In this document: positions 5,401 through 61,735 of the stretch, piece by piece
Layout of the letters: every line of letters begins with the position of its first letter
Position numbering within the stretch: the first letter of the stretch is position 1
Source: an uncultured Acidobacteriota bacterium
Lineage (GTDB): Bacteria > Acidobacteriota > Vicinamibacteria > Vicinamibacterales > CAVVIG01
Assembly (NCBI GenBank): GCA_963789075.1
Contig: CAWBJQ010000012.1
Location: forward strand, 23,306 to 87,305
Reading direction: 5' to 3'
Length of the DNA stretch: 64,000 nt
The notes under the pieces: generated by a model
The model's input: the letters and a program-made list of their open reading frames with translations, nothing else
Databases searched by the model: none
Told to the model about the DNA's origin: nothing
Program-made: the position numbers and the translations under genes

Positions 5401-5428
5401 GGATTCGGGATTCGGGATTCGGGATTCG
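5401..5428. repeat. Tandem heptamer repeat (GGATTCG)x4
   Basis: ggattcgggattcgggattcgggattcg lies directly downstream of the hemE stop. A degenerate GGGATTA / GGGATCA / GGAATC series recurs at 5531..5556 upstream of hemH. Confidence 0.8.
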
Positions 5429-5473: not shown

Positions 5474-5561
5474 GGCAAGGGGACCAAATCGAACCGGCCT
5501 TACAGCTGTAAAGTAGCGCGAAGGCTTTAGCTGGATCAGGGATTAGGGATCAGGAATCACG

Positions 5562-6441: not shown

Positions 6442-6453
6442 ACGGATTGTTTT

Positions 6454-6640
6454 TGCCACAGAGGCGCCGCGAGAATTCGACGGGCGTCGCGATGCGACGC
6501 GCGCGGCCGATCCGGTCGCACAGAACCGGCCTGCAACGCAGGCCGGCCGTCGAATCGGTGCGGCGCTTCTGTGTCGTGCTTCGGCCTCGCGGAGAGGCAG
6601 CATAAGGGGGCAGTGAATTTTCTCGGTGACTCTGTGGCAA
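6454..6640. mobile_element. MITE-like dispersed repeat, copy 1, with 11-bp terminal inverted repeats and an internal GC-rich hairpin
   Basis: ttgccacagag (6454..6464) pairs with ctctgtggcaa (6630..6640). The interior (gaattcgacgggcgtcgcgatgcgacgc...ccggcctgcaacgcaggccgg at 6527..6547...gtcgaatc) is homologous to the element at 55416..55577. Confidence 0.55.
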
Positions 6641-6645
6641 ATTTT

Positions 6646-6672
6646 CTTCGTGATCTTCGTGACTCTTCGTGG
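6646..6672. repeat. Heptamer repeat block CTTCGTG x3 abutting the MITE-like element
   Basis: cttcgtgatcttcgtgactcttcgtgg. The 20-mer ttttcttcgtgatcttcgtg (6642..6661) is identical to 46163..46182. Confidence 0.7.
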
Positions 6673-6694: not shown

Positions 6695-8072
6695 ATGTCG
6701 ATGGACCTGAACGCGCCACACGTCGACGTCGCCATCGTTGGCGGCGGCATTGCGGGGCTGGCCGCGGCGTTCGAGCTGTCGCGGCGCGGCGTGTCGTTCG
6801 TCCTGCTCGAGCGCAGCGACCGCGCCGGCGGCGTGATCATCAGCGAGCAGATCGACGGCTACACGATCGACGGCGGTCCCGACGCGCTGCTGGTCCAGAA
6901 GCCCGACGGCATCAGGCTCTGTCAGGAGCTCGGTCTCGGTGATCGGCTCGTCGCGACCAAACCGCCGCGGCTCGCCTACATCCAGCGCGCCGGACGGCTT
7001 CATGCCCTCCCCGCCGGATCGGTTCTCGGCATTCCGACGCGCGTCGCCCCGTTTCTCAGGACGCCGCTGTTTTCGTGGGCCGGCAAGCTGCGCATGGGCG
7101 CCGAGCTCTTCGTGCCGGCGAAACGCGACGAGGTGGACGAGTCGATCGGAGCGTTCATCACGCGCCGCTTCGGCGCGGAAGCGACCACGTATCTCGCGGA
7201 GCCGCTGCTCGCGGGCATCCATGCCGGCGACGTCGATCGCCTGTCGATGCGCGCGCTGTTTCCGCGCTTCGTCGAAGACGAGCGGACGCACGGGAGCCTG
7301 CTGCGCGCGTTCCGCCGGCGGGCGCCGGCGACGCCGCTCCGCCGACGGTGCCTTCAGGTCGCTGCCGGGCGGACTGAGCGAAATGGTGAATGCGCTCGCC
7401 GCCGCACTCCCGGCCGATACCATCCGTCTCAAAACGACCGTCGGCGCGCATCAGCGGCGCCGGTCCGTTCCAGGTCGAAACGGGCGCCGACCAAGCGGTG
7501 CAGGCCAGCGCGGTGATCGTCGCGGCGCCCGCGTACGCGACGGCGTCGATCCTGCGCGACTACGACACCGAGATCGCCCGGCTGTGCGGCGAGATCCCGT
7601 ACGCGTCCGCTGGCACCATCGCGCTCGCGTTTCGCCGCGAGGACGTCGGGCATCCGCTCAACGGATCCGGCTTCGTCGTCCCTCGCGTCGAGGCGAACGG
7701 CATCCTGGCCGCGTCGTGGTTGTCGTCGAAGTGGCCGCAGCGCGCTCCAGACGGCCGGGTGCTGCTGCGCGCGTTCGTCGGCGGCGCTCGCGATCCGAAC
7801 GTGCTCGAGCAGACGGACGCACAGCTCGTCACACGCGCGATCGCGGCGCTCACGCCGGTGCTCGGCATCCGCGCGCAGCCGCTCTTGTCGCGCGTCTACC
7901 GGTTCGAGCGCGCCAACGCGCAGCACGAGGTCGGACATCTCGCCCGGATCGCGGCAATCGATCGCGCCCTCGCGCGGCATCCAGGTTTGTTTCTCACCGG
8001 CAGCGGTCTGCGCGGCGTCGGCATTCCCGACTGCATCACGGACGCCCGCGCCACCGCACAACAGGTGACTGA
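6695..8072 (+). CDS. hemY: Protoporphyrinogen/coproporphyrinogen III oxidase (HemY/CgoX family, FAD-dependent); 2-3 apparent frameshifts
   Basis: MSMDLNAPHVDVAIVGGGIAGLAAAFEL..GYTIDGGPDALL..RFGAEATTYLAEPLLAGIHAGDVDRLSMRALFPRF, then SLPGGLSEMVNALAAAL, then PFQVETGADQAVQASAVIVAAPAYATASIL..GSGFVVPRVE..ILAASWLSSKWPQRAP..VYRFERANAQHEVGH..GLFLTGSGLRGVGIPDCI. There is no in-frame stop before the next gene, so a further shift near 8060 is inferred. Confidence 0.75.
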
Positions 8073-10685: not shown

Positions 10686-10760
10686 AGGCGCCTGTAGCTC
10701 AGTGGTAGAGCATCCGACTTTTAATCGGATGGTCGTTGGTTCAATTCCAACCAGGCGCAC
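10686..10760 (+). tRNA. tRNA-Lys (anticodon UUU), CCA encoded
   Basis: GCGCCTG-TA-GCTCAGTGGTAGAGC-A-TCCGA-CTTTTAA-TCGGA-TGGTC-GTTGG-TTCAATT-CCAAC-CAGGCGC-A-CCA folds by hand into a cloverleaf with a 7-bp acceptor stem. Confidence 0.85.
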
Positions 10761-21172: not shown

Positions 21173-21964
21173 CTACATCTGACGAAACAGATGCAGGTAG
21201 TTGCGGCTCACCGGCAGAACGTCATCTCGACCCTTGACGTGAATCTCGGCCGTTTCGTTGTCATGCCGCTTGACATGGCTGATCGCGCGCAGATTCACGA
21301 CGACCGACCGATGGACTTGCGCGAATTGTTCCGCATCAAGCTGCTCGAGCAGCTCCTTGAGCGGCGTCCGCACCACCGCCTCGGCCGGTCTCCCTCCATC
21401 GCGCCAGGCGACGATGGTGTACTTCGCGTCGGAGCGAAGGTAATCGACGTCATTGATCGCGATGAGGCGCACGGTATTCCCCGCTTGCGCGCGAATCCAT
21501 CGCAGCGCCTCGCTCTTGCCGCCGCCGCTCTGCAGCTTCGCGAGCTGCTCGCTCAGTTGCTGCAACAGCTGCTCGGTGTTGATCGCCGGCCTCGACGACC
21601 GCACACGCTCTTTGAGACGGCTCACGGTTTCCGCGAGCCGCGCCTGTTCGACCGGCTTCAGCAGGTAGTCGAGTGCGCCCTGCGCGAAGGCCTGTACCGC
21701 GTAGTGATCGTACGCGGTCACGAACACGAGATGCGCGCGCCGGCCGATGTGGTTCGCGGCATCGACACCGGAGAGGCCCGGCATGTGGACGTCGAGGAAA
21801 CAGATGTCGGGATGACGCTCGTCGAACAACCGAACCGCCTCCCGCCCGTTCCGCGCCTCGGCGACAATCTCGAGCTCGGGCCACACGGTCGCAAGCTGGC
21901 GCCGCAGCGCGTCGCGCAGCAGCGGTTCATCGTCCGCGATCAACGCTGTCGCGTCGGTATTCAT
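21173..21964 (-). CDS. LytTR-family response regulator (receiver plus LytTR DNA-binding domain), intact
   Basis: MNTDATALIADDEPLLRDALRR..ICFLDVHMPGLSG..LVFVTAYDHYAVQAF..DYLLKP..VVNLRAISHV. Confidence 0.85.
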   Translation of the reverse strand: MNTDATALIADDEPLLRDALRRQLATVWPELEIVAEARNGREAVRLFDERHPDICFLDVHMPGLSGVDAANHIGRRAHLVFVTAYDHYAVQAFAQGALDYLLKPVEQARLAETVSRLKERVRSSRPAINTEQLLQQLSEQLAKLQSGGGKSEALRWIRAQAGNTVRLIAINDVDYLRSDAKYTIVAWRDGGRPAEAVVRTPLKELLEQLDAEQFAQVHRSVVVNLRAISHVKRHDNETAEIHVKGRDDVLPVSRNYLHLFRQM

Positions 21965-41363: not shown

Positions 41364-42142
41364 ACGCGCGTCTCCGCGTCGCGATCGCTGATGACGAGCG
41401 GCCGGCGCGCTCGTTTCTCCGCTCGCTGCTTCGATCGTTCGAAGACGTGCTCGTCGTCGGCGAAGCCGCCTCGGGTCATGAGGCAGTCACGATCATCGAA
41501 CAGGAACGGCCGGACCTGGCGCTGCTCGATCTCCACATGCCGGAGCTCGACGGCTTTGGCGTCGTCCGCATGCTGAAGAAGCAAACGATGCCACTCATCG
41601 CGTTCGTCACGGCGTACGACGAATACGCGGTCCGCGCGTTCGAGGTGAACGCCGTCGACTATCTGTTGAAGCCGGTCGACAAGAGCCGCCTGCGAGCGAC
41701 GTTGAACCGGGCGCAGGAGCGGATCGAGCACGCGGAAATCGTGGACGAGCAGCGGACGAGGGTGGGCACGGCGATCGAGGCGTACGAAACCGCCGCCAGA
41801 GGACCTTATCTCGAGCGGATCCCGGTGCGCCGCCGGGACGAGATCGCGCTCGTGCCCGTTCAGCAGATCGCGTCGATCGTCGCCGAGGGGGAGCTTCTGC
41901 ATCTGGTGACGGTGACCAACGACAAGTTCACGATCACGTATCGCCTCAAGGATCTCGAAACGCGCCTCGACCCCGCGCGGTTCATCCGGCTCGGCCGCGG
42001 GACACTCGCCAACATCGACGTGATCTCGAAGGTGGGCGTCATGCCGGGCGGCACGCACGTCGCGATTCTCAGCAACGGGCAAAAGCTTCAGGTGAGCCGT
42101 CTGCAGTCCCGGGTCTTGCGCGAGCGGTTCCTGCGGCTGTAA
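41360..42142 (+). CDS. LytTR-family response regulator, intact
   Basis: MNARLRVAIADDERPARSFLRSLL..LALLDLHMPELDG..AFVTAYDEYAVRAFEVNAVDYLLKP..LVTVTNDKFTITYRLKDLE. The ATG overlaps the upstream TGA as ATGA. Confidence 0.85.
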   Translation: MNARLRVAIADDERPARSFLRSLLRSFEDVLVVGEAASGHEAVTIIEQERPDLALLDLHMPELDGFGVVRMLKKQTMPLIAFVTAYDEYAVRAFEVNAVDYLLKPVDKSRLRATLNRAQERIEHAEIVDEQRTRVGTAIEAYETAARGPYLERIPVRRRDEIALVPVQQIASIVAEGELLHLVTVTNDKFTITYRLKDLETRLDPARFIRLGRGTLANIDVISKVGVMPGGTHVAILSNGQKLQVSRLQSRVLRERFLRL

Positions 42143-46126: not shown

Positions 46127-46192
46127 CCACGAAGCTCACGAAGACACGAAGAGCTCAAATACTTTTCTTCGTGATCTTCGTGGCCTTCGTGG
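46127..46192. repeat. Hairpin repeat: CACGAAG x3 on one arm, CTTCGTG x3 on the other
   Basis: ccacgaagctcacgaagacacgaag...cttcgtgatcttcgtggccttcgtgg includes the 20-mer shared with 6642..6661. Confidence 0.7.
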
Positions 46193-55375: not shown

Positions 55376-55415
55376 CGACTCTCGATCGGCTTGCCGCTTT
55401 CGTCACGAAGACACG

Positions 55416-55577
55416 TTGCCACAGAGTCACGGAGTCACAGAGAAGCGGGACACGCGCACAGCAATCGCGTCGATCTCGATTCGAGGGGCGTCGCGACGCC
55501 GGTCGGCCTGCAATGCAGGCCGACCCCTCGAATCTGCAGCGCGGCGGAACCTCTGTGCCTCGGTGCCTCTGTGGCAA
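55416..55577. mobile_element. MITE-like dispersed repeat, copy 2
   Basis: Termini ttgccacagag (55416..55426) and ctctgtggcaa (55567..55577). The internal nested palindrome gattcgagggg...ggtcggcctgcaatgcaggccgacc...cctcgaatc is homologous to the 6454..6640 interior. Confidence 0.55.
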
Positions 55578-61065: not shown

Positions 61066-61161
61066 TCATCACGAAGGCACGGCGAACACGAAGGCCACGA
61101 AGATCATTTCGTACAGATACCCCCCTTCGTGACCTCCGTGTTCTTCGTCTCTCCGTGATGA
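61066..61161. repeat. Long imperfect hairpin built from CACGAAG / CTTCGTG-like heptamers
   Basis: tcatcacgaaggcacggcgaacacgaaggccacgaagatcat...ccttcgtgacctccgtgttcttcgtctctccgtgatga. Confidence 0.6.
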
Positions 61162-61185
61162 GCGGGGGTGGCCCCCTACCACCGC

Positions 61186-61254
61186 AGCACCCTAGCACCC
61201 TAGCACCCAGCACCCCAGCACCCCAGCACCCCAGCACCCCCGCCCCCAGCACCG
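61186..61254. repeat. Tandem heptamer/octamer simple-sequence repeat (AGCACCC[C/T])x8-9
   Basis: agcaccctagcaccctagcacccagcaccccagcaccccagcaccccagcacccccgcccccagcacc lies about 30 nt upstream of the gene at 61286. Confidence 0.8.
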
Positions 61255-61285: not shown

Positions 61286-61735
61286 ATGTATACGACTGTC
61301 CTCGCCATTCATTCCTGGCTACGCTGGGTCGCGCTCGTCGCCGGCGTCGGTGCAACGTTGAGCGCGATGATGGAGCGCGGCGATGGCCGTCGCGCCGATC
61401 GATGGGGCCTCGCGCTGGTGACCTCGCTCGATCTCCAGATGCTGATCGGCCTGCTGCTCTACTTCGCGCTGAGCCCGTTCACGAAGGTCGCCATGCAGGA
61501 CTTCGGCGCCGCGATGAAGGATCCGGGCCTGCGGTTCTTCGCCGTGGAGCACGTCACGATGATGCTCGCCGCCGTGATCCTGGTGCATCTCGGCCGGGTC
61601 CTGGCGCGGAAGGCCGCTTCGCCAGGCGCCAGGCGGACGCGGATGTTCGTCTGCTTCGGCCTCGCCACGATTCTGATGGTCGTCGCGATTCCCTGGCCGG
61701 GCATGGCGCACGGCCGGCCGCTGTTCCGCGTATAA
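61286..61735 (+). CDS. Small polytopic membrane protein (4 TM), intact
   Basis: MYTTVLAIHSWLRWVALVAGVGATLSAMM... Confidence 0.5.
   Translation: MYTTVLAIHSWLRWVALVAGVGATLSAMMERGDGRRADRWGLALVTSLDLQMLIGLLLYFALSPFTKVAMQDFGAAMKDPGLRFFAVEHVTMMLAAVILVHLGRVLARKAASPGARRTRMFVCFGLATILMVVAIPWPGMAHGRPLFRV

Follow-up and report, generated by a model that had tools for sequence, protein, structure and literature searches.

Two intergenic inverted heptamer-array elements of an Acidobacteriota contig, probable gene-less relatives of GxxExxY-associated palindromic cassettes

Mosaic, nested combinations of small palindromic modules are known from the nested small dispersed repeats of cyanobacteria, and bacterial interspersed mosaic elements (BIMEs) share this build. 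Other small intergenic repeats are mobile: in the REPIN/REP-RAYT system, doublets of repetitive extragenic palindromes (REPs) are mobilised by a REP-associated tyrosine transposase, RAYT (PMC3116915, PMC2817692), while the bacterial miniature inverted-repeat transposable elements (MITEs) include Correia and Nezha (PMC3184786). Intergenic heptameric repeats have been described as GGGAATC in Xanthomonas and GGGGAYT in Nostoc (PMC4692102), and as TAACTGA in Beggiatoaceae (PMC4679880). Our study reports on two intergenic elements with TTGCC...GGCAA termini in a 64-kb stretch of contig CAWBJQ010000012.1 from an uncultured Acidobacteriota bacterium (64,000 nucleotides, 65.6% G+C, hereafter the window), which a first-pass annotation had described as a two-copy, MITE-like element, or else a REP-like element or small RNA. 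We propose that both are probably gene-less, non-autonomous, REPIN/MITE-like members of a family of palindromic cassettes associated with the GxxExxY protein, a nuclease that would drive their spread. The family is very widespread and apparently undescribed; like REPIN-RAYT, it couples hairpin repeats with a nuclease gene.

The 11-bp terminus TTGCCACAGAG has four exact matches in the window, at 6453-6463 (+), 6630-6640 (-), 55416-55426 (+) and 55567-55577 (-), which form two inverted pairs enclosing 166 nt (copy 1) and 140 nt (copy 2); with one mismatch allowed there are six matches against 0.8 expected, a number reached in none of 100 dinucleotide shuffles. The perfect inverted termini first described are thus real, and the coordinates given for copy 2 were exact, while copy 1 starts at 6453 and not, as first placed, one nucleotide later at 6454. 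The terminus is not a terminal inverted repeat (TIR) in the proper sense: it is only the outermost unit of an inverted array of heptamers (CACNGAG, period 8-9 nt), extended inward in both copies by degenerate heptamer units. The arms of copy 2 read TTGC-CACAGAG-T-CACGGAG-T-CACAGAG on the left and CTCTGTG-C-CTCGGTG-C-CTCTGTG-GCAA on the right; copy 1 has a degenerate left arm, TTGC-CACAGAG followed by G-CGCCGCG, and a right arm CTCGGTG-A-CTCTGTG-GCAA. Both copies are short and non-coding, with no family-matching open reading frame (ORF), and both lie between co-directional genes, as had been noted: hemH and hemY in the case of copy 1, and the genes for an ABM/SnoaL protein and a 2-hydroxyacid dehydrogenase (2-Hacid_dh) in that of copy 2. 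Their interiors are homologous and hold the nested GC-rich palindrome reported at first; the shared core reads ATTCGA-N-GGGCGTCGC ... GGCCTGCAAYGCAGGCC ... CC-N'-TCGAAT, with an outer stem (ATTCGA-N-GG / CC-N'-TCGAAT) around GC-rich hairpins that include GGCCTGCAAYGCAGGCC. The heptamers seen beside the copies are reported independently by Tandem Repeats Finder (TRF), as CTTCGTG x3 at 6645-6671 and as arrays at 55402-55442 and 55550-55573; they are, however, part of the element system and not its border. The CTTCGTG half array next to copy 1 has 3-4 units in filled orthologues and is absent at empty sites.

Within the window the TTGCC flavour is confined to these two copies, but the construction is not. 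Arrays were defined as at least 2-3 units of C[AG]CN[AGC]A[GT] at 7-11-nt spacing, with the reverse complement on the other arm and forward...reverse polarity. By this definition the window holds nine arrays with at least two units (0.44 in shuffles) and five with at least three (0 in 50 shuffles), and two further hairpins of the CACGAAG flavour, at 46127-46192 and 61066-61160, are built in the same way as the TTGCC elements. In every case in the window the CAC..AG array comes first and the CT..GTG array after it, and all four elements lie in intergenic spacers, three of them demonstrably between co-directional genes. The earlier count of two therefore holds for one flavour in one window, and the motif is abundant in other genomes.

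Comparison with close relatives in Vicinamibacterales, whose empty spacers at both loci are short and can be aligned, shows that both copies are insertions into the intergenic spacers of co-directional genes. The hemH-hemY spacer measures 253 nt in the window and 227 nt in L201 (HemY 93% identical), where the same element is accompanied by CTTCGTG x4. The site is also filled in L202 (HemY 87%), with the cargo, the DNA between the arms, inverted relative to the window and L201 (L202 1-161 against window 6453-6640 and L201 1126-1352) and the flanking CTTCGTG array unaltered, which suggests inversion between the inverted arms. The spacer is empty in L203 (HemY 86%; 27 nt, AGATGTGTTGAAACGTACGAGTAACCG, the right part of which aligns to the right flank TTGAAGGACCTCCGAGTTACCG of the window) and in L204 (85%; 15 nt); hemH and hemY overlap, with no element, in L206 (84%), and the spacer of L207 (84%) holds a different bare hairpin, CCACCACGGAGG...CCTCTGTGGTGG. 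The SnoaL-2-Hacid_dh spacer, 257 nt long in the window, is without the element in L208 and L209 (73%; 69 nt) and in L210 and L211 (71%; 59 nt), with conserved flanks ..GTCACGG/CCGTTCGAATTACAATCGAGGTTCGAGCGGCCGCGATCCC. Conversely, the related metagenome-assembled genome (MAG) DATATJ01, whose hemH-hemY site is empty (L204), carries a copy with homologous cargo at L100, a locus without similarity to the window. Presence and absence at orthologous sites, together with copies at unrelated loci, mean that conserved gene context does not explain the similarity of the two copies, and the empty sites in close relatives show that the element is dispensable there. The target-site duplications that a transposon might leave are not evident in the two filled/empty comparisons: at copy 1 there are at most an ambiguous 2-3 nt (TT/GTT), and at copy 2 none. 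Both insertion points, two cases only, adjoin a pre-existing heptamer-like half-site (GTCACG/ and /GTG-TTGAA, the slash marking the junction).

The arms extend far beyond these relatives. A DNA scan for TTGCCACAGAGKCRCSGMG in a 596-Gb collection with one genome per species (GTDB) found at least 120 loci; by our own estimate, chance alone would give about 70 matches across the collection. Most matches continue with a third unit, giving the consensus arm TTGCCACAGAG-GCACGGAG-ACACAGAG, and at least 71 non-redundant elements among the matches listed are paired with an inverted array no more than 600 nt away, so that most matches are clearly not due to chance. The same 27-nt arm occurs in more than 12 phyla, including one archaeal MAG; the groups that bear it are Acidobacteriota, Gemmatimonadota, Chloroflexota, Leptospiraceae, Gammaproteobacteria, Planctomycetota, Verrucomicrobiota, Bacteroidota, Nitrospinota, Nitrospirota, KSB1, Calditrichota and a Methanoperedens MAG. 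The distances between paired arrays fall into three classes, 10-30 nt (bare hairpins), about 100-200 nt (non-coding cargo, the class of copies 1 and 2) and about 400 nt (a gene). Cargo is lineage-specific and repeated within a genome, and identical arms elsewhere carry unrelated cargo: that of the window is a mosaic of GC-rich hairpins common to Vicinamibacterales, a Leptospiraceae UBA2033 MAG has matches on at least 12 contigs, several of which share an AT-rich cargo of about 200 nt, and the Phototrophicaceae chromosome OZ243925 has at least seven loci, with a 184-nt cargo in six of seven. On the Phototrophicaceae chromosome (OZ243925.1; L012, L029, L043, L062, L099, L101) the TTGCC element forms the inner part of a repeat of about 290 nt with an outer inverted repeat of its own, CAGGGCAATCGCATCAAA...TTTGATGCGATTGCCCTG, an arrangement that amounts to nesting of palindromic modules. 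A cargo of another kind is seen at L192 (1924-2780), where arrays flank 807 nt with a 248-aa ORF that is not GxxExxY and could be a second kind of gene cargo. Eight plasmid records, mostly megaplasmids, have matches. Viral contigs (IMG/VR) gave six pattern matches, of which only L214 and L217 look like genuine TTGCC-type arrays; one of these two viral or proviral contigs has a complete bare hairpin. Phages could be vectors of spread between phyla.

The cargo of about 400 nt is a single ORF of about 125 codons that starts right after the last forward unit and ends right before the first reverse unit, and it encodes a GxxExxY protein (TIGR04256, E 1e-38 to 1e-43; also PF13366). Seven GxxExxY ORFs occur in the 120 listed loci selected by DNA, all less than 35 nt from an array: the gene lies between TTGCCACAGAGGCACGGAG... 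and ...CTCTGTGGCAA in L031, L036 and L039, and the far end is a variant, ...CTCCGTGGCAA, in L013. Arrays of the CACGAAG flavour flank a GxxExxY gene in L133 and L181, loci outside this DNA-selected set. In all-against-all clustering of the array-near ORFs of these loci GxxExxY was the only specifically recurrent family; generic ABC-transporter ATPases were the only other family to recur within 400 nt of arrays, and no transposase recurred within that distance in the approximately 0.9 Mb of array-bearing DNA. The association also holds in reverse. Among 80 metagenome loci chosen by GxxExxY protein similarity alone, 78 had usable flanks, and within 120 nt of the gene a forward array stood upstream in 50, a reverse array downstream in 45, both in 34 and any array in 69, whereas the background, taken at a distance of more than 300 nt, is 2.1-2.5% per 126-nt window. 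The enrichment around this protein family is 25-30-fold. The inverted-repeat alignment score exceeded that of every shuffle at 55% of GxxExxY loci and in 7% of far flanks. The units flanking the gene come in many flavours (CACAGAG, CACGGAG, CGCAGAG, CGCGGAG, CGCCGAG, CACGAAG, CGCAAAG, CGCCAAG), and flavour is contig-specific: distant arrays match the gene-adjacent array on the same contig in 24 of 62 cases, where 8.6 were expected and 2000 permutations never gave more than 19. A disrupted, apparently frameshifted GxxExxY gene sits between two complete CGCAGAG hairpins on the Gemmatirosa kalamazoonensis plasmid NZ_CP007129.1 (993600-994265; L218 1300-1965); this organism is cultured and its genome finished, which would make it a convenient experimental reference.

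GxxExxY (TIGR04256/PF13366, PDDEXK_3) has a minimal, Cas4-like PD-(D/E)XK fold, with D67, E77 and K79, together with E28, E32, E38 and Q91, invariant in 55 sequences; its AlphaFold2 model has a mean predicted local distance difference test score of 91.6, and a PDB sequence search for a solved relative gave no match. The family is large, with 31,346 clusters at 50% identity matching the profile at E<=1e-3 and 12,813 at E<=1e-10. In the one survey found, its function is given as 'Unknown', with multiple horizontal transfers (PMC3424549), and the searchable literature, subscription-only papers aside, holds no account of the repeat strings or of a function for GxxExxY/PF13366/TIGR04256. Some matches are 240-295 aa long with two matched stretches (P0361-P0365 and others); these may be true tandem fusions, or else neighbouring cassettes annotated as a single gene. 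The cargo of copies 1 and 2 was also considered as a decayed GxxExxY gene, a candidate that was rejected, as no remnant gave a similarity signal even at E<=50.

The gene found at the arrays bears directly on the first interpretation of the two copies. As classical MITEs they would be deletion derivatives of an insertion sequence (IS), moved in trans by a DDE transposase with the 11-bp TIRs and the subterminal repeats as its binding sites. Their small size, non-coding interior, perfect TIRs, subterminal repeats and presence/absence polymorphism all fit, as do the diverged copies, several to a genome, of Leptospiraceae UBA2033 and Phototrophicaceae OZ243925, and in size, TIRs, interior, intergenic site and polymorphism they resemble bacterial MITEs such as Correia and Nezha. 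Unlike those MITEs, however, they show no target-site duplication at either junction pair and have termini made of multi-unit arrays; no parent IS or DDE transposase was found, no transposase family is recurrent near the arrays of the 120 loci, longer relatives with the same arms encode a 125-aa PD-(D/E)XK protein instead, and in one genome the TTGCC pair sits within a larger repeat with different outer TIRs. What survives of the MITE description is the small, non-coding, inverted-repeat-bounded element that is present or absent at a site; a transposon of this classical kind we consider improbable.

We propose instead that copies 1 and 2 probably belong to GxxExxY-associated cassettes whose arms each consist of about three heptamers at an 8-9-nt period, CACNGAG here and CGCNGAG, CACGAAG, CGCAAAG and others elsewhere, with the outermost unit preceded by C and a T/A-rich tail. 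The cargo of such a cassette is interchangeable: a 10-30-nt loop, 100-200 nt of non-coding DNA, or one GxxExxY gene of about 125 codons. From the association of gene and arrays we infer that mobilisation is driven by GxxExxY. In this model, a GxxExxY nuclease encoded elsewhere in the genome would recognise the heptamer arrays, either as a duplex or as an extruded hairpin or cruciform, and its cleavage, followed by homology- or microhomology-templated repair, would lead to spread and cargo exchange without cut-and-paste transposition. Such a break-and-copy process would account for the missing target-site duplications, for the flipped cargo (palindromic arms permit either orientation), for nesting and mosaicism, for insertion points beside a pre-existing heptamer-like half-site, and for the near-obligate link of gene and array. 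More tentatively, the heptamer-array cassettes may represent an unrecognised, pan-prokaryotic class of mobile element with GxxExxY as its enzyme, recognising tandem heptamers on hairpin or cruciform DNA and copying both cassettes and gene-less hairpins by break-induced templated repair, with no chemistry of the transposase type, a broader claim to which we give somewhat less than even weight. If true, it would provide a function for a family of more than 30,000 protein clusters, would account in part for the excess of heptameric repeats long noted in the intergenic DNA of bacteria, and would be a candidate explanation for intergenic repeats from Leptospiraceae to Acidobacteriota to an archaeal Methanoperedens MAG. 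The near-obligate link of gene and array offers a concrete, testable substrate for GxxExxY.

The parallel with REPIN-RAYT is close in several respects. In both, short intergenic hairpin-forming inverted doublets are mostly gene-less, lack a target-site duplication and have a genome-specific flavour, and in a small fraction of cases the repeats flank or surround a gene, always one specific gene of nuclease type; the Gemmatirosa gene lies between two complete hairpins as a RAYT lies between REPs. The REP-like reading of the first-pass annotation thus captures the hairpin-forming doublets, but the recurrent flanked gene is GxxExxY and not a RAYT: the associated protein has a Cas4-like PD-(D/E)XK fold here and an HUH/Y1 (IS200-like) fold in RAYT, and the arms are tandem heptamer arrays where a REP is a single imperfect palindrome with a GTAG head. 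Here, moreover, the arm is common to many phyla, the gene is usually inside the hairpin and the cargo is variable. Like free-standing homing-endonuclease genes, the GxxExxY gene codes for a small nuclease and is set precisely into a recognisable sequence of which unoccupied examples exist (the bare hairpins), and by analogy cleavage with templated repair would leave no target-site duplication; unlike them it has no intron or intein context, and its putative 'target' is itself a dispersed repeat. Module nesting is seen here in the CACGAAG half array beside a TTGCC element, in the ATTCGA stem around hairpins and in the outer CAGGGCAATCGCATCAAA TIR in Phototrophicaceae, much as in BIMEs and the nested repeats of cyanobacteria, although the unit sequences differ and those repeats have no link to a PD-(D/E)XK gene.

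For the elements of the window very stable folds are predicted, whichever strand is taken (z -4.4 to -9.7). A structured small or cis-regulatory RNA in the interior, with the inverted termini as closing helix, would have such strong folds, and in the outer stem of the Vicinamibacterales cargo pairing is kept at position 9/78 through C:G, G:C or U:A, in only 3-4 copies. Nevertheless, Rfam held no match for the elements at the gathering threshold or even at E<=10 (best scores 10-17 bits, E 0.5-6), and its only match in the window at the gathering threshold is a tRNA at 10688-10759. The two strands fold about equally well, the cargo is flipped at the orthologous locus of L202, hairpin modules are gained and lost between cargo copies, orthologous spacers of relatives have no element, and identical arms in other lineages hold unrelated cargo. 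The small RNA first suggested is left without support by the Rfam result, the equal strand folding, the flipped cargo and the empty sites, and we regard this reading as very improbable. Predicted Watson-Crick pairs between arms number 22.2 within elements and 22.1 between chimeric arms, ungapped arm identity is 0.66 within and 0.55 between elements, mostly reflecting third-unit register or shared spacer register, and the variable position 16 (the fourth base of the second unit) shows no complementarity (0.23 observed, 0.21 expected). Because there is neither an excess of arm pairing nor complementarity at the variable base, the arms look constrained as sequence, which would fit recognition by a protein, rather than by compensatory pairing, although the result is equivocal. 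Integron attC sites, multi-site ends of the Tn7 or Mu type, sigma-54 promoters and intrinsic terminators were weighed on the sequence and dropped as candidates, since both the consensus and a T-tract are missing.

The foremost competing explanation is a palindromic spacer, neutral or useful to the host, that is REP/BIME-like or an inverted heptameric simple sequence repeat (SSR), born by slippage and spread by recombination, in which GxxExxY is a mere resident or is regulated by the stem; in a transcript it could offer a site to RNase III, stabilise the mRNA, insulate, or form a stem that sequesters a Shine-Dalgarno (SD) sequence. The very stable predicted stems on both strands (z -6 to -9) agree with it, as does the placement of all four window elements in intergenic DNA, and forward units followed by G create an SD-like GAGG/GGAGG immediately upstream of many GxxExxY starts. 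The intergenic DNA of bacteria is known to hold an excess of heptameric repeats, some of them in inverted pairs (PMC4692102, PMC4679880), and like these SSRs the present arrays have 7-nt tandem units in spacers near start or stop codons, form inverted pairs as some Xanthomonas arrays do, and vary in unit number between relatives (three or four CTTCGTG units in orthologues). The arrays of Xanthomonas, Nostoc and Beggiatoaceae are, however, for the most part direct repeats confined to particular lineages; they lack defined termini and have not been reported with an associated gene, whereas those described here have about three units, are strictly inverted with fixed polarity, cross phyla and are tied to GxxExxY. 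The occurrence of an identical 27-nt arm in more than 12 phyla is not explained by slippage, nor are the conserved TTGCC/RCC terminal unit and the enrichment around one protein family; the sites are empty in close relatives, and the two arms of an element are predicted to pair no better than chimeric ones. Near GxxExxY genes the sense strand shows no significant G:U bias (41 versus 30 loci, p=0.08), by an energy measure that is weak and does not discriminate. Duplex energy between GxxExxY flanks was rejected as a measure, since shuffled and far-flank controls were almost as low, and was replaced by array counts and alignment scores with controls. Taken with these points, an origin as a spacer element seems to us unlikely, though with a larger share of the probability than a classical MITE or an RNA.

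Several observations weigh against cassettes spread by GxxExxY. Neither the 64-kb window nor about 52 kb of related Vicinamibacterales loci contains a GxxExxY gene or remnant, so that a trans-acting copy in the source genome is assumed and not seen. The association of array and gene could equally mean that GxxExxY is a passenger or that the arrays regulate it. Clusters of GxxExxY at 90% identity are mostly small, with one or two members, and each is found on one to three contigs, which is not the pattern of a transposase in a recent burst. Close relatives (70-85% identity) bear the labels of different phyla. The junction analysis rests on two filled/empty comparisons, and one element is kept at an orthologous site in two Verrucomicrobiia species (L048, L094), which indicates that turnover can be slow. 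Whatever moves them, the arrays mark sites of rapid intergenic turnover and are useful for strain typing. The stem-loop of about -100 kcal/mol predicted in the hemH-hemY and SnoaL-dehydrogenase transcripts is a consequence of the insertions and not a demonstrated function; stem-loops in operon spacers such as hemH-hemY may affect mRNA processing.

Table 1. Array elements and their parts in the window (mfe, minimum free energy of the predicted RNA fold).
Feature	Position	Strand	Basis
Copy 1, TTGCC-type heptamer-array element, 188 nt	6453..6640	no strand	RNA mfe -110.9 kcal/mol, z -6.9; orthologous empty sites
Copy 1 cargo core	6473..6556	+	stem ATTCGACGG/CCGTCGAAT around three GC-rich hairpins including CCGGCCTGCAACGCAGGCCGG
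Copy 1 right-side arrays	6622-6636 plus 6646-6671		array scan
CTTCGTG x3 half array, CACGAAG flavour, adjoining copy 1	6645..6672	no strand	motif scan, TRF, orthologue comparison
Single CACGAAG unit, left flank of copy 2	55404..55410	+	partly from pre-existing GTCACGG of empty sites
Copy 2, 162 nt	55416..55577	no strand	mfe -96.6 kcal/mol, z -6.8; empty orthologous spacers
Copy 2 cargo core	55478..55534	+	ATTCGAGGGG ... GGCCTGCAATGCAGGCC ... CCCCTCGAAT
Bare hairpin, CACGAAG flavour	46127..46192	no strand	z -8.6, array scan, TRF
Bare hairpin, 4+4 partly degenerate units CACGAAG/CACGGCG ... CTTCGTG/CTCCGTG	61066..61160	no strand	array scan, folding
Array pairs of the window	55420-55442/55551-55573; 46128-46151/46167-46191; 61087-61102/61125-61140	inverted	array scan

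The first of the two bare hairpins of the window reads CCACGAAG-CT-CACGAAG-A-CACGAAG, a 15-nt loop, then CTTCGTG x3-G. It separates two minus-strand genes, with the stop of one, for a STAS-domain protein, on one side and the start of the other, for an FAD-binding monooxygenase, on the opposite side. For the second hairpin the minus strand gives the more stable fold (-55.3 against -41.5 kcal/mol). Twenty nucleotides downstream of it, and just upstream of an ORF starting at 61286, the octamer CACCCCAG is repeated 9.5 times in tandem (61180-61253, TRF score 106).

Heptamer arrays of a different kind occupy the hemE-hemH spacer, where direct arrays of GGATTCG (x4) and GGATCAG (x3.9), at 5401-5428 and 5533-5559, lie around a hairpin. 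These arrays are G-quadruplex-like (GGGN4) and resemble the G-rich heptamer repeats of Xanthomonas and Nostoc (PMC4692102). Orthologous spacers hold GGGATTC x4 (L203 1540-1591), inverted GGGTTCA/TGAACCC arrays (L206 436-652) and inverted arrays of GCTGGTA type (L207 428-570).

The longest inverted repeat of the window, 82 nt at 77% complementarity, joins 21648-21729 and 41598-41679, about 20 kb apart, and may derive from paralogous genes on opposite strands. Codon-position GC indicates frame shifts in three genes, hemH (about 6040), hemY (about 6950-7516) and the 2-hydroxyacid dehydrogenase gene (about 56000), which are either indel errors of the source assembly or real pseudogenes; HemY of the window is recorded as 273 aa (P0001), against 455-470 aa in relatives.

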